Part shown: positions 2,374 to 8,700 of the stretch, piece by piece | Position numbering within the stretch: position 1 is the first letter of the stretch | Layout: the number at the start of each line of letters is the position of its first letter | Virus genome (UHGV): UHGV-1440302 | Strand: one strand, 5' to 3' | DNA length: 8,700 nt | Source of the DNA: a virus | The notes under the pieces: generated by a model | What the model was told of the DNA's origin: nothing | Seen by the model: the letters and a program-made list of their open reading frames with translations, nothing else | Databases searched by the model: none | Position numbers and translations under genes: made by a program

Positions 2374-3606
<1,233 letters not shown>

Positions 3607-3662
3607 GTGCCGTCTGAGGTGGGATTATCAGGACGCGGCATCTCAATTTAGCTACTACAACG

Positions 3663-3760
3663 TCAGTGCGCATAATGTGACACGCGTTATGTTGAAAAGG
3701 CCGCTGCGATACTCTCCACCGCAGCGGCCTTTTTATACATAACGTCATTGTGCGCACTGA
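3663..3760 (+). other. Candidate XerCD-dependent attP: two inverted dif-like sites that can fold into a forked hairpin in the + ssDNA
   Basis: Site 1 (+): AGTGCGCATAA (3665-3675), 11-nt spacer TGTGACACGCG, TTATGTTGAAA (3687-3697); compare recalled E. coli dif GGTGCGCATAA-TGTATA-TTATGTTAAAT. Site 2 inverted (+ 3732-3758, read on - strand): AGTGCGCACAA-TGACG-TTATGTATAAA. Arms are mutually complementary (3665-3675 with 3748-3758, 10 of 11 pairs; 3687-3697 with 3732-3742, 9 of 11) with unequal unpaired centres, capped by a 10-bp GC stem. Confidence 0.7.
3695..3736. terminator. Bidirectional intrinsic-terminator-like hairpin (also the tip of the attP hairpin)
   Basis: Perfect 10-bp stem ggccgctgcg (3699-3708) / cgcagcggcc (3720-3729), 11-nt loop, AAAA on the 5' side and TTTTTA on the 3' side; lies about 90 bp after the gIV stop and downstream of the minus-strand gene cluster. 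Confidence 0.65.
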
Positions 3761-3763
3761 ACC

Positions 3764-3919
3764 TTAAAGGATTTCAGTGTCCTTACTTAGTTTGTTGTGT
3801 ATGGTCATCACCAACGGTGGGACAAGCGTTATCAGGCTGAATATTGTCATGCCTGTGATGCTGCCAACAACAAAATGCTTTATCAGCAGGTCAAGAATTA
3901 AGTCACTGGTTGTCTGCAT
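3764..3919 (-). CDS. Hypothetical small hydrophobic protein, 51 aa (MQTTSDLILDLLIKHFVVGSITGMTIFSLITLVPPLVMTIHNKLSKDTEIL)
   Basis: Hand-translated minus-strand ORF, below the ORF-track length cut-off; ATG at 3919-3917 immediately after repeat copy 1, stop TAA at 3766-3764; one predicted transmembrane-like segment; only a weak SD (GAAG). Confidence 0.25.
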   Translation of the reverse strand: MQTTSDLILDLLIKHFVVGSITGMTIFSLITLVPPLVMTIHNKLSKDTEIL

Positions 3920-3971
3920 ATTGCTTCTAGCAATCTTCGTATCGATAGGTAACTATAATGTTATTTTTTTG
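3918..3971. repeat. Direct repeat copy 1 (~53 bp) covering the stop codon and 3' flank of a minus-strand small ORF
   Basis: atattgcttctagcaatcttcgtatcgataggtaactataatgttatttttttg matches 4446-4502 with about 3 substitutions and 1 indel; contains palindrome TATCGATA and a TATAAT hexamer (+ strand). Confidence 0.85.
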
Positions 3972-4149
3972 TTGCATCCGTCTTTGCAAATTTCCTGTAG
4001 TCATCTTCTGTTATAGACTCCAGTCCTTTTGCGATTATCCATTCTAAAACTTTGGTATCTTTTACTGGTATTGCCAGTGTTGTTACCACTTTTACAGTTT
4101 CTTTCTCTACCTTTCTCCATAAAACATCGTTTATGTGCTTTGTTGGCAT
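3961..4149 (-). CDS. Small DNA-binding-like protein, divergent paralog of the two upstream ribbon-helix-helix-like ORFs (62 aa from ATG; 82 aa if GTG at 4209 is used)
   Basis: ATG at 4149-4147 preceded by GAGGT with 7-nt spacing; C-terminal segment VKDTKVLEWIIAKGL parallels LKPSEIVNHLIDNYL and VTWSEVVHFMIKNYL of the neighbours; ends KK-stop inside repeat copy 1. The alternative GTG start at 4209 overlaps the upstream ORF's stop by 4 nt. Confidence 0.5.
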   Translation of the reverse strand: MPTKHINDVLWRKVEKETVKVVTTLAIPVKDTKVLEWIIAKGLESITEDDYRKFAKTDATKK

Positions 4150-4205
4150 TTTTACTACCTCTGTTTGATCTTTGTCAGCCCGTCTGTTCGATGCCGGGAA
4201 AGGAA

Positions 4206-4418
4206 TCACATTGCTCTTTTTTTCTTAAGTTCTTCTCTGCTTATTAAATCTTTCACGGCCTCATCTAAGTAATTGTCTATTAAGTGATTAACTATTTCAG
4301 ATGGTTTTAGTATCTCACCGGTCTTATTGCCGATTTCTAGCACTCTTCGTTTTAGCTCCAATTTTCTGTCTTCGTTGATTCTTACAGTTGTGTCTCCGCG
4401 CTTTGTTTCTTTTTTCAT
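4206..4418 (-). CDS. Ribbon-helix-helix (CopG/Arc/MetJ-like) small DNA-binding protein, putative repressor, 70 aa
   Basis: ATG at 4418-4416 preceded by GAGGT with 8-nt spacing. TTVRINEDRKLELKRRVLEIGNKTGEILKPSEIVNHLIDNYL has the strand-helix-helix pattern of CopG/Mnt-type RHH proteins (compare recalled CopG ...LTITLSESVLENLEKMAREMGLSKSAMISVALENY). About 50% identical to ORF 4490-4672 over the helix region. Confidence 0.6.
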   Translation of the reverse strand: MKKETKRGDTTVRINEDRKLELKRRVLEIGNKTGEILKPSEIVNHLIDNYLDEAVKDLISREELKKKRAM

Positions 4419-4445
4419 CACAGTTTACCTCTATGTCCTGTCAAT

Positions 4446-4502
4446 ATATTGCTTCTTAGGAATCTTCGTATCGATAGGTAACTACTATGTTATTTTTTTT
4501 GG
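4446..4502. repeat. Direct repeat copy 2 (~53 bp) covering the stop codon and 3' flank of a minus-strand small ORF
   Basis: atattgcttcttaggaatcttcgtatcgataggtaactactatgttattttttttgg; see copy 1. The ORF 4490-4672 ends KK-stop at the equivalent position within the repeat. Confidence 0.85.
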
Positions 4503-4672
4503 TTTCTTTGGTGGATCATGTCTTGTTTTGCGTCGTTTAAGTAGTTTTTTATCATAAAGTGTACAACTTCCGACCATGTAACTATTTGCCCTGTTTTTTG
4601 GCTTATCTCAAGGGCTATCCTAGTAATATCCAGATATGTTGATTCTGTAATTGCTATTGCCTTTCTTTTCAT
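4490..4672 (-). CDS. Ribbon-helix-helix-like small DNA-binding protein, candidate phage repressor divergently transcribed from the Rep gene, 60 aa
   Basis: ATG at 4672-4670 preceded by GGAG with 8-nt spacing. IAITESTYLDITRIALEISQKTGQIVTWSEVVHFMIKNYL is paralogous to ORF 4206-4418 (shared KTG...SE.V...I.NYL...A..D). Its upstream region is the palindrome-rich divergent region shared with the Rep gene, an arrangement like rstR/rstA in CTXphi. Confidence 0.6.
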   Translation of the reverse strand: MKRKAIAITESTYLDITRIALEISQKTGQIVTWSEVVHFMIKNYLNDAKQDMIHQRNQKK

Positions 4673-4684
4673 TCGCTCATCTCC

Positions 4685-6787
<2,103 letters not shown>

Positions 6788-6817: not shown

Positions 6818-7243
6818 ATGAATCAAATTTATGACAGTTTTCCGTTTCCTTCCCCTGAGGGTTTTACCGCAGGTATGACAATGGCGGGATATTTTATTCA
6901 CGCCACTGTCATAAATGATGAGGAGTTAAAACCCACGGGTTCTCATTATAACCCTGAGGCCAAACCCAAATATGCCATTGTTATTGCCTATCCGTATGAG
7001 GACCGAAAATTAAAAGTCCGCCGTGAGGAGCATGAGCGCTTTTCCTGTACTGAGGAGGATTTTAAATTTTTTAATTCATGTCCTGATTTGCAGGGCAAAC
7101 CTGTTTATCTCACGGTGGATGTTAACTCATGGTCGACAGGCTCTGAACGTCATGGTGTCTGGTATCGTTTTATTTCCGGCTCCATGAAACGTTTTGACGG
7201 TCAGCCGCTGGGTGCACTGCCCGCTGGTAAAGAAAAAGGCTGA
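6818..7243 (+). CDS. Hypothetical protein in the gV position (possible ssDNA-binding protein), 141 aa
   Basis: Strong RBS GAGGAG (6804-6809), ATG 6818; located between the Rep gene and the small coat-protein genes where Ff phages encode gV. No sequence similarity to M13 pV recognised; assignment is positional only. Confidence 0.4.
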   Translation: MNQIYDSFPFPSPEGFTAGMTMAGYFIHATVINDEELKPTGSHYNPEAKPKYAIVIAYPYEDRKLKVRREEHERFSCTEEDFKFFNSCPDLQGKPVYLTVDVNSWSTGSERHGVWYRFISGSMKRFDGQPLGALPAGKEKG

Positions 7244-7557: not shown

Positions 7558-7818
<261 letters not shown>

Positions 7819-7877: not shown

Positions 7878-8700
7878 TTGATTCGTCTTATTTTTCCGCT
7901 TCTGTTTTTGTTCTTTTCTTCGCTTTCTTTTGCTGAGGGGAAAAAAAATCCGGATGAATTTGTTGAGTGTTTTGGCCGTTTATCCTGCAGGACAGCTTAT
8001 TCAGACGCGGGGACATCGATTAAATTAGCCAGGGGAGCAGGTCATGTTTATTGTGGCTGGTCCAGTGTTGATGCATGTTCCGGAATAATTCATTATTGCG
8101 GCGACAATCCTTCAAAGGTTTCTGCCGCACCTTCTACCGTTGGGAATTTTGTTTCTGCCAAATGGCATGCATATAAAGTCTGGGATTTAGACAAGCAAGA
8201 GTGGCAAACCTGCGCCCTTGCTTTTCAGGGAGGTGAGGGTGATTTGACACCTGAATATAATAAGCCGGTTACCGAAGAAAATTGTCTTTCCCGTCCGGTA
8301 ATTAAGGACTTTTCATATTCTCTTGGTGATGTTGTCTGGGTTGATACGGGTAACGGGCAGGAATCTCAGTCCCTGGAAATTAATGGCTGTCGTTATTTGA
8401 TTGATTTTAACGAGTGTGATGACGACGGGAATTGTATCGCTCAGAGTATGCGTTCTGTTGGCGTGGCTGTCGCCAATAAAAATCCTGACGACAATACAGG
8501 GAGTGGCTCTGGTTGTGACGACGACAATTGCGATAATACGACAGGCTCTGGCGGTTCATCCGGCAGTGGTGGCTCCGGCTCGGGTTCCGGCGGCTCATCC
8601 GGCAGTGGTGGTTCAGGTTCTGGCTCCGGTGGTTCATCCGGTAGCGGTGGTTCAGGTTCTGGCTCCGGTGGTTCATCCGGTAGCGGTGGCTCCGGCTCGG
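7878..8700 (+). CDS. gIII: Minor coat/adsorption protein pIII, N-terminal part (signal peptide, Cys-rich receptor-binding domains, start of Gly/Ser linker); 3' end beyond window
   Basis: RBS AGGAG (7866-7870), TTG start at 7878 (no in-frame ATG nearby); hydrophobic signal LIRLIFPLLFLFFSSLSFA; open frame with no stop to position 8700; multiple Cys (CFGRLSC, YCGWSSVDACSGIIHYCG, CRYLIDFNECDDDGNC); enters the GGSSGSGGSGSGS repeats at about 8544. Not in the ORF track because it has no stop in the window. Confidence 0.8.
   Translation, partial: MIRLIFPLLFLFFSSLSFAEGKKNPDEFVECFGRLSCRTAYSDAGTSIKLARGAGHVYCGWSSVDACSGIIHYCGDNPSKVSAAPSTVGNFVSAKWHAYKVWDLDKQEWQTCALAFQGGEGDLTPEYNKPVTEENCLSRPVIKDFSYSLGDVVWVDTGNGQESQSLEINGCRYLIDFNECDDDGNCIAQSMRSVGVAVANKNPDDNTGSGSGCDDDNCDNTTGSGGSSGSGGSGSGSGGSSGSGGSGSGSGGSSGSGGSGSGSGGSSGSGGSGS
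8544..8700 (+). repeat. Coding tandem repeat, 39-bp unit encoding GGSSGSGGSGSGS (pIII linker), continuing beyond the window
   Basis: About four imperfect 39-bp units in the gIII frame, matching units at 1-167. Confidence 0.9.

Follow-up and report, generated by a model that had tools for sequence, protein, structure and literature searches.

Three stacked genes for putative RstR-type repressors in a dif-integrated inovirus prophage of Escherichia coli and their proposed role in heteroimmunity

The stretch of viral DNA analysed here (UHGV virus genome UHGV-1440302; 8,700 nucleotides, hereafter the window) is a CTX-type inovirus prophage of Escherichia coli, dif-integrated beside hipBA. Ahead of its replication endonuclease gene (Rep) lies a minus-strand cassette of three small open reading frames (ORFs), for which the explanation that appears most probable, at somewhat better than even chances, is a stack of three RstR-type immunity repressors, with ORF2 and ORF3 giving heteroimmunity in trans. 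ORF1 (4490–4672, minus strand, 60 amino acids), divergent from Rep and a member of the RstR-env-like family phrog_2503, is the proposed cognate repressor of the phage. ORF2 (4206–4418, minus strand, 70 amino acids from its ATG, with an alternative GTG at 4421) and ORF3 (3961–4149, minus strand, 62 amino acids), a homologue of RstR-calc in phrog_5219, are the putative orphan repressors. That the array pairs the phage's own repressor with two captured orphans expressed as weapons or controls against the inoviruses and satellites that share dif is a more specific claim, to which slightly less than an even chance is given.

Several features of the cassette had been noticed in a sequence-only reading of this DNA and are borne out. 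All three minus-strand ORFs have a good Shine-Dalgarno sequence (GGAG or GAGG before each), the cassette is AT-rich compared to Rep (GC of 0.34–0.39 across 3750–4800 versus 0.50–0.58), and ORF1 and ORF3 each terminate with KK-stop within a copy of a direct repeat. The longest frame for ORF3 opens at a GTG at 4209, while every homologue begins with MPTKHI, placing the start at 4149. Compared with diverged copies, the genes show purifying selection (dN/dS of 0.06 for ORF2 and 0.018 for ORF1, the latter versus locus L007), and the ORF3 protein (WP_033808723.1) is identical between stacked and solo settings. ORF1 is unannotated by RefSeq (Prokaryotic Genome Annotation Pipeline, PGAP) in all of the stack genomes (L001 5027–5209; L002 6731–6913; L108, between 12763 and 13132); the identical gene is annotated by PGAP where it is solo (L004, WP_021559714.1).

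Profile comparisons with PHROGs assigned ORF1 and ORF2 to phrog_2503 (ORF1, E 6e-27) and ORF3 to phrog_5219, both listed as of unknown function, and Pfam returned no above-threshold match for the three ORFs or their relatives, with no ribbon-helix-helix (RHH) family passing. ORF1 and ORF2 are related, as had been proposed, at 38–42% identity over their full length, lower than the ~50% first estimated. ORF3, described beforehand as a more divergent relative, is one, though pairwise alignment (17% identity) and shallow profiles (hhalign probability, 4.6%) both missed the relationship. It became visible only with a profile of 65 sequences from the ORF1/ORF2 family, drawn from an exhaustive HMMER search (106 representative clusters; 50% identity, E up to 0.001), which aligned in register with the ORF3 family (89 clusters at 90% identity; hhalign probability, 91%; E 1e-6). 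The ORF1/ORF2-family profile also matches RstR-calc-like proteins directly in hidden Markov model cross-hits.

Among deposited phages searched by tblastn, ORF2 shares 66% identity with the genes annotated as RstR in GQ466611 and in KR063268, homologues that belong to CTXphi strain IB1617 (the ‘environmental RstR’) and pre-CTX, and 64% with an ‘RstR-like’ gene of the Vibrio anguillarum phages VAI1/VAI2. All of these annotated homologues are divergent from rstA. In E24377A (L006), ORF2 is also the only gene divergent from Rep, and in L003, which has ORF3 as well, it is the one closer to Rep. The module held in common with the RstA-type phage of E24377A spans 4182–4446 and consists of the gene, 24 nt downstream, and ~25 nt upstream; it aligns with L006 2492–2756 at 88.7% identity (blastn), with the promoter and operators excluded. 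The major intergenic region of phage If1 (NC_001954.1, ~5119–5322, minus strand; L109 871–1074) carries an ORF (MATPKRTTMAIVAERKLKLERLAIDASHTAGRAITWTDIVNHLIDNYAKDTEKDLIHTTKSSE) that is intact, lacks an annotation, and clearly belongs to the RstR-env-like (ORF1/ORF2) family, and the earlier remark that no equivalent was known in Ff phages is not supported. A neighboring If1 ORF of 147 amino acids (L109 362–805) looks, by eye only, like a fragment of an IS200/IS605-type transposase.

For ORF3, the link to CTXphi was made through the rstR-calc primers given in the supplement of PMC11509585. The forward primer encodes MATKHIKDST, the N-terminus of the ORF3 family, and a 180-bp gene with ends that fit both primers was recovered from IMG/VR (L018) and identified as RstR-calc. 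ORF3 is 44% identical to this protein (59 amino acids ungapped, full length, E 4e-17). Eight rstR alleles, including Calc (180 bp), 5 (204 bp), and 6 (192 bp), each specifically repress their own ig-2 promoter in lux assays (PMC11509585). ORF3 is the sole Rep-divergent gene in L005, and members of its family are divergent from four unrelated Rep types. RstR-calc is reportedly, after Davis et al. in 1999 (J Bacteriol 181:6779), the repressor of CTXphi-Calcutta. The homology to RstR is therefore to a tested allele in the case of ORF3 and, for ORF1 and ORF2, to homologues with a function given by annotation only. The matches of ORF3 to RstR-calc and of ORF2 to the annotated environmental RstR uphold the analogy with rstR/rstA of CTXphi that had been drawn from the sequence; the accompanying distinction, that the window encodes an RHH rather than a helix-turn-helix protein, unlike CTXphi, is not supported, as the proteins are homologous to small CTXphi rstR alleles (calc and environmental).

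Each protein family travels with its own candidate operator motif in the comparative data: GTTAAC accompanies ORF1-type genes, GCATGC accompanies ORF2-type genes, and CTAAGA accompanies ORF3-type genes. For the ORF2 type, (C)GCATGC(G) palindromes flank TTTACA-18-TATGAT in L003 and L006, i.e., in both Rep contexts, and the loci of near relatives of ORF2 from Vibrio, Xenorhabdus, and Arsenophonus likewise have GCATGC upstream of the gene. For the ORF3 type, CTTAGAA/CTAAGAA surround a canonical TTGACA-17-TATAAA. Across 70 IMG/VR loci of the ORF3 family, CTAAGA/TCTTAG reaches 12.9 per kb in the 160 nt upstream versus 0.16 per kb elsewhere (~80-fold), with at least two CTAAGA copies in 54 of the loci and control motifs scoring zero. 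The further allele of the ORF1/ORF2 family found in L008 is accompanied by TGCACAATTGCAC. Such allele-specific repeated operators are a property of RstR systems that holds comparatively, with the window itself possessing the ORF1 set only: no CGCATGCG and a single CTAAGA were found in the whole 8.7 kb. Since GTTAAC is the only set in the control regions of the window, ORF2 and ORF3 would be orphan repressors in this genome.

The divergent control region between ORF1 and Rep (4673–4786) contains three GTTAAC repeats and a TTGACC hexamer, the proposed operators of ORF1 and promoters. The GTTAAC-containing repeats at 4688, 4740, and 4748 (TGTTAACAGTTTAACA, TGTTAACCTGTTAACA, and TGTTAACACTTTAACA) surround the TTGACC, and three of the five GTTAAC sites in the window are clustered within 66 nt, before Rep. 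The repeats are retained in L007 despite a control region that is only 82% identical. No CGCATGCG and no CTAAGA array occur within 4673–4786. LexA control, as in CTXphi-ET, was considered and rejected, with no LexA box in the same interval. ORF1 is the sole Rep-divergent gene in five relatives (L004, L024, L025, L029, and L030). A divergent repressor gene next to attL, as expected for RstR, is thus represented in the window by ORF1, and for ORF2 and ORF3 only in solo relatives (L006 and L005, respectively).

Relatives with the same GPA-type Rep (~82–99% identical DNA over the Rep start) vary in the genes carried between attL and Rep, which are ORF3 alone in L005, ORF1 alone in L004, L024, L025, L029, and L030, ORF3 and ORF2 in L003, an additional ORF1/ORF2-family allele in L008, and an ORF1-like gene with a DUF2726 gene in L007. 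The ORF2 module serves phages with the GPA-type Rep and, in E24377A (L006), with an RstA-type Rep. L003, L005, and L008 become homologous to the window again precisely at 4787/4788, the start codon of Rep, which is the right boundary of an exchangeable immunity module. Other breakpoints fall at the repeat (3970 and 4499), and homology ends at 4446 for the E24377A ORF2 module and at 4166 for the ORF3-only phage. Module exchange, in which homology is lost where rep begins and again past the repressor gene, is a further property of the RstR group and is thereby observed. In-situ duplication was rejected as the origin of the cassette, as each gene has closer relatives elsewhere than inside the stack; ORF2, for example, is nearer to the Vibrio CTXphi RstR (66%) than to ORF1 (38–42%). 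The suggestion of a duplicated and diverged module consequently gives way to separately acquired alleles, each of which is elsewhere the only gene that a phage has divergent from Rep.

The full stack occurs at 99.7–99.9% identity in three complete genomes, with two tandem copies in E100341, and in three additional assemblies; the strains come from several countries. An assembly artefact, posed beforehand as an outcome that would undo the cassette and its repeat, was rejected on this recurrence in several independent E. coli genomes. Phages of the ORF2 type and of the ORF3 type are present in other E. coli genomes. In E300010 (NZ_CM128601.1, L108 9001–11750), an RS1-like element of 2.9 kb lies between dif/hipA and the stack phage; it encodes a repressor of the ORF2 type and an RstA-type Rep, has two further ORFs of 198 nt and 327 nt, is devoid of structural genes, and may be an E. 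coli counterpart of the CTXphi satellite RS1.

The direct repeat of ~53 bp with its palindrome, as first noticed, is confirmed by gapped alignment of 3918–3970 with 4446–4499 (50 of 54 columns identical, three mismatches, one indel), which has a local score of 86 compared to a maximum of 32 in 200 shuffles; the palindrome TATCGATA is at 3940 and 4469. Copy A (3918–3970) comprises the last codons of ORF3 (KK-stop) and downstream DNA joined to the common left-end region. Copy B (4446–4499) forms the 3' flank of ORF1, and at its left edge (4446) it is newly joined to the sequence upstream of ORF2, with a microhomology of only 3–4 nt. A comparison of related prophages for copy number of the ORF and repeat unit, which had been proposed as a check, returned one repeat in single-repressor relatives and two in the stack: a single copy with the same left flank occurs in L005 (ORF3 only), L003 (ORF3 and ORF2), and L004/L024 (ORF1 only), and L007, with a related GPA-type Rep, is without the repeat. 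L004 aligns to 3667–3970 and 4446–5000 of the window through one shared copy, indicating that 528–529 bp (ORF3, ORF2, and one repeat) are inserted between the window copies.

Of the roles offered for the repeat beforehand, that of a recombination junction or module boundary agrees with these data, in that homology breaks there and the copies bracket the ORF3 and ORF2 insert; that of an operator does not, in that the repeat carries none of the three operator arrays and is a single, downstream copy in single-repressor phages. An operator was accordingly rejected for the repeat, as was a terminator or structured RNA (fold not significant, z of -1.2 and -1.5, and not terminator-like). The repeat can be read as the shared 3' boundary of an immunity module, probably duplicated by module stacking. 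A CTAAGAA half-site of the ORF3-type operator lies at 4453–4459 in copy B, and at the same position in the single repeat of L003 and L024; in copy A it is destroyed by a 1-nt deletion. At background density the half-site would be a chance-level event, with a relic operator also conceivable.

The proposed mechanism follows the action of RstR at ig-2/PrstA in CTXphi. ORF1 would bind the GTTAAC repeats around the divergent promoters and thereby turn off Rep and replication. ORF2 and ORF3 would recognise GCATGC-type and CTAAGA-type operators, respectively, as the repressors of two other immunity groups. Homology of ORF2 and ORF3 with their solo contexts ends 17–28 nt upstream of the start codons, such that the promoters and operators were lost and the Shine-Dalgarno sequences were kept. 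A scan of 3600–4900 identified no promoter-like site on the ORF strand between the three ORFs and no terminator-like site. With the Shine-Dalgarno sequences kept, a head-to-tail order, and no promoter or terminator between the genes, ORF2 and ORF3 are most likely co-transcribed from the ORF1 promoter. They would then act only in trans: heteroimmune inoviruses or RS1-like satellites, whether incoming or resident in the same dif array, would have their Rep promoters silenced, and superinfection immunity would be broadened. The sequence comparisons show the homologies, the modular arrangement, the association of each family with a motif, and the lack of cognate operator arrays for ORF2 and ORF3; DNA binding by the three proteins, their co-transcription, and immunity in trans are what we infer.

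The stack may have arisen by exchange and illegitimate joining of ‘repressor + operator’ modules, probably in heterologous tandem arrays at dif, with the 53-bp repeat duplicated as a by-product that could also mediate the loss of ORF2 and ORF3. The series of contents among the relatives suggests stepwise replacement, from ORF3 to ORF3 and ORF2 to ORF3, ORF2, and ORF1, in which only the operator-proximal part of the module would be replaced each time.

A neutral recombination scar is an unlikely, though serious, alternative. On this account ORF1 works and ORF2 and ORF3 are recent passengers, under no selection for a function in this phage, from illegitimate recombination between heteroimmune prophages in a dif array, likely to be lost via the repeat, and it would fit a stack that is rare and nearly clonal, in which the promoters and operators of ORF2 and ORF3 are gone. 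The 53-bp repeat permits clean deletion to the ORF1-only architecture with one copy, an architecture at least equally common among the matches listed, and heterologous arrays do exist (E300010). A scar does not readily account for the intact frames, strong Shine-Dalgarno sequences, and operon-like order of ORF2 and ORF3 with no terminator-like site, nor for a stack that is spread over strains of several countries and kept in both copies of a tandem array, and the two-gene intermediate L003 (ORF3 and ORF2) suggests repeated retention over a single accident. Highly improbable is the proposal that the repeat is a functional site needed twice, for example a terminator, an operator, a target of Xer or another recombination system, or the point at which the plus strand originates or is nicked by Rep. 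The repeat is conserved among phages with this Rep (L003, L004, L005, L024, and partly L008) and holds the palindrome, copy B has the CTAAGAA half-site, and the CTXphi origin is in ig-1, downstream of rstR. Yet single-repressor relatives manage with one copy, L007 has none with a GPA-type Rep that is ~82% identical (DNA, over the start), the RNA fold is neither significant nor terminator-like, and one CTAAGA in 8.7 kb is expected by chance at 0.16 per kb, with copy A lacking it. Two direct rolling-circle origins would also delete 529 bp in each round, and the stack propagates stably, including in tandem.

Least probable of all, and very much so, is that the three proteins form one multi-component switch acting jointly on the promoters of this phage, as a repressor with a co-repressor or anti-repressor or as heterodimers. 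ORF1 and ORF2 are paralogues for which heterodimers are possible in principle, all three proteins are related at the profile level, and the genes are tightly packed; against this, each gene suffices as the only Rep-divergent gene in relatives with an almost identical Rep, each family carries its own operator motif across genera, the window is without ORF2 and ORF3 operator arrays, and the N-terminal segments differ. The earlier option of a repressor plus additional regulators is likewise disfavoured by the presence of each gene with its own operator set elsewhere, while its companion option, stacked immunity determinants, is the one retained, with three separately acquired RstR-type alleles that each have their own motif in relatives.

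Several points weigh against a stack of active immunity repressors. Stacking is rare (three of 5426 complete E. coli genomes, none of 70 IMG/VR loci, and none of seven GTDB loci), which fits a transient recombination product as well as it fits adaptation, and the stack is young (99.7–99.9% identical), so that the intactness of ORF2 and ORF3 within it is no proof of selection. The scan of 3600–4900 detected no consensus sigma-70 promoter for ORF1. DNA binding and expression are only predicted for all three ORFs. The ‘environmental RstR’ label on the ORF2 homologue is an annotation, and no functional test of that allele was found; the tested allele rstR-6 (192 bp) resembles the ORF2 homologue by its primers, and its sequence was not recovered via the published primers. 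Finally, the RHH fold is not established, with Foldseek insignificant and no Pfam RHH family over threshold.

An RHH fold of the three proteins is nonetheless likely, but not proven. The monomer model of ORF2 (pLDDT, 82.6) consists of a coil at residues 1–16 and helices at 17–34 and 40–70, and that of ORF3 (pLDDT, 89.2) of a coil at 1–7 and helices at 8–25, 31–45, and 48–61, with the strand in both cases uncallable without a partner chain. Foldseek with these monomers returned nothing significant in the PDB for either model. Profile searches of the PDB gave marginal matches only (TTHA0139, 5ytp, E 0.004; ParG, E 0.21). The N-terminal segments, which would read the DNA, differ (KAIAITES in ORF1, TTVRINED in ORF2, and PTKHIND in ORF3), and alleles vary most there and have different operator motifs, which lends indirect support to a dimer that would read the major groove with its paired N-terminal strands. 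The best PDB match of the ORF1/ORF2 profile, 5ytp_A (TTHA0139 from Thermus thermophilus), covers residues 1–59 end to end and has no Pfam family; it may be the solved structure of a distant ORF1/ORF2 relative.

The remainder of the window is consistent with a CTX-type prophage. Rep itself (4787–6787, plus strand) is a Phage_GPA-type replication endonuclease (PF05840, E 6e-49), annotated by PGAP as 2001-nt genes in the stack genomes. A Zot-like assembly ATPase (1010–2221) and a secretin (2383–3606) are encoded on one side of the cassette; beyond Rep are a weak G5P-like match (6818–7243; E 0.075, under the Pfam cut-off) where a single-stranded DNA-binding protein is expected, and a putative coat protein (7558–7818) with no Pfam match that was assigned from its position only. 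Near-identical DNA was found only in E. coli chromosomes, often as tandem copies and adjoining hipBA, and a megablast search of the window versus deposited phages returned no match. The window ends are GC-rich (1–225 and 8300–8700; 0.54–0.58), homology to most relatives stops at ~172 and ~8299, and the window is slightly longer than one phage unit of ~8.5 kb. A CTX-type attP at 3663–3760 comprises two inverted dif-like sites (AGTGCGCATAA...TTATGTTGAAA and the imperfect inverse of these, from an inverted-repeat scan and the sequence itself) that flank a perfect 14-bp GC-rich hairpin (3695–3733), which would double as a bidirectional terminator. The junctions in E100341, with attL at hipA and an attR that reconstitutes GTGCGCATAATGTATATTATGTTAAAT, confirm integration at dif. 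The attP at 3663–3760 and the E100341 attL and attR place the cassette at the prophage's left end, with attL on one side and Rep on the other.

A fourth minus-strand frame, ORF4 (3764–3919, 51 amino acids), is hydrophobic and unannotated (MQTTSDLILDLLIKHFVVGSITGMTIFSLITLVPPLVMTIHNKLSKDTEIL), with its ATG at the left edge of repeat copy A. It has no Pfam or PHROG match, L003, L004, and L008 preserve its frame, the differences being concentrated at the third codon position (2, 2, 7), and the leftward transcript may end with this gene. An RHH-class antitoxin of a toxin-antitoxin pair was rejected for the cassette proteins, as there is no toxin-like ORF in 3760–4790, where the only other ORF is the hydrophobic ORF4; the hipBA near the window is chromosomal and outside attL.

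A function is thereby proposed for two widespread inovirus families (of unknown function in PHROGs and hypothetical in RefSeq), which are linked to small rstR alleles and for which operator motifs are predicted (CTAAGA, GCATGC, and GTTAAC). The ‘repressor + operator’ module moves among inoviruses whose replication proteins are unrelated, crossing genera from Vibrio to Escherichia. Should the orphan repressors be active, three immunity groups would be excluded or silenced by this one prophage, with a bearing on competition for the dif site, the composition of tandem arrays in human-derived E. coli (including enterotoxigenic E24377A), and the evolution of immunity in filamentous phages. The protein families and the principle of heteroimmunity are already known from CTXphi. 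In the literature searched, the recognition of these families in inoviruses of E. coli and elsewhere, the pairing of family with operator motif across genera, and the stacking of three heterologous alleles in one genome were not described.

Among the closest known systems is the rstR/ig-2 heteroimmunity module of CTXphi (Kimsey and Waldor 1998; PMC11509585). As in the phages compared here, its repressor gene is transcribed away from rep, its operators are specific to the allele, and phages exchange the module, homology being lost abruptly at the start codon of rep and on the downstream side of the repressor gene, and in CTXphi rstR occupies the same place as the cassette, between attL and the rep gene. 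The replication gene differs, being RstA (Rep_trans) in CTXphi and a Phage_GPA-type Rep in the window. RstR-calc is similar in size to ORF3 (59 versus 62 amino acids), solo ORF3 relatives likewise lie at the left end of an inovirus integrated at dif, where they are transcribed divergently from the replication gene, and RstR-calc (L018) has TCTAAGA-type repeats upstream, as do ORF3 relatives in E. coli, Shewanella, marine samples, and Citrobacter; ORF3 of the window differs in being third in the stack, away from Rep, and without its cognate operator array. The environmental RstR of CTXphi-env and pre-CTX has an N-terminal KRGDTTVRINE identical to that of ORF2, with GCATGC palindromes in its divergent region too, and counts ORF1 as a paralogue in the same PHROG, while ORF2 of the window is promoterless and operatorless. 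RHH regulators (CopG/Arc/MetJ, ParG, and the antitoxin domain of PrpA/ParD) have no significant Pfam or Foldseek match to the ORFs, and differ from them in the long second helix of ORF2 (~30 residues) and the third helix of ORF3.

Among inoviruses of the Enterobacterales, the UPphi paper lists three uncharacterised reverse ORFs at this position, variable among relatives and with function unstated; UPphi901, compared by description only, is dif-integrating and has them in the same place. A Citrobacter koseri inovirus has an ORF3-family gene at that place, with a second reverse ORF that is unrelated. CTXphi has one repressor per phage genome, and multiple rstR alleles per strain stem from multiple prophages (PMC11509585). 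Compared to CTXphi and every other locus examined, with one repressor each, the window holds three heterologous alleles in one genome.

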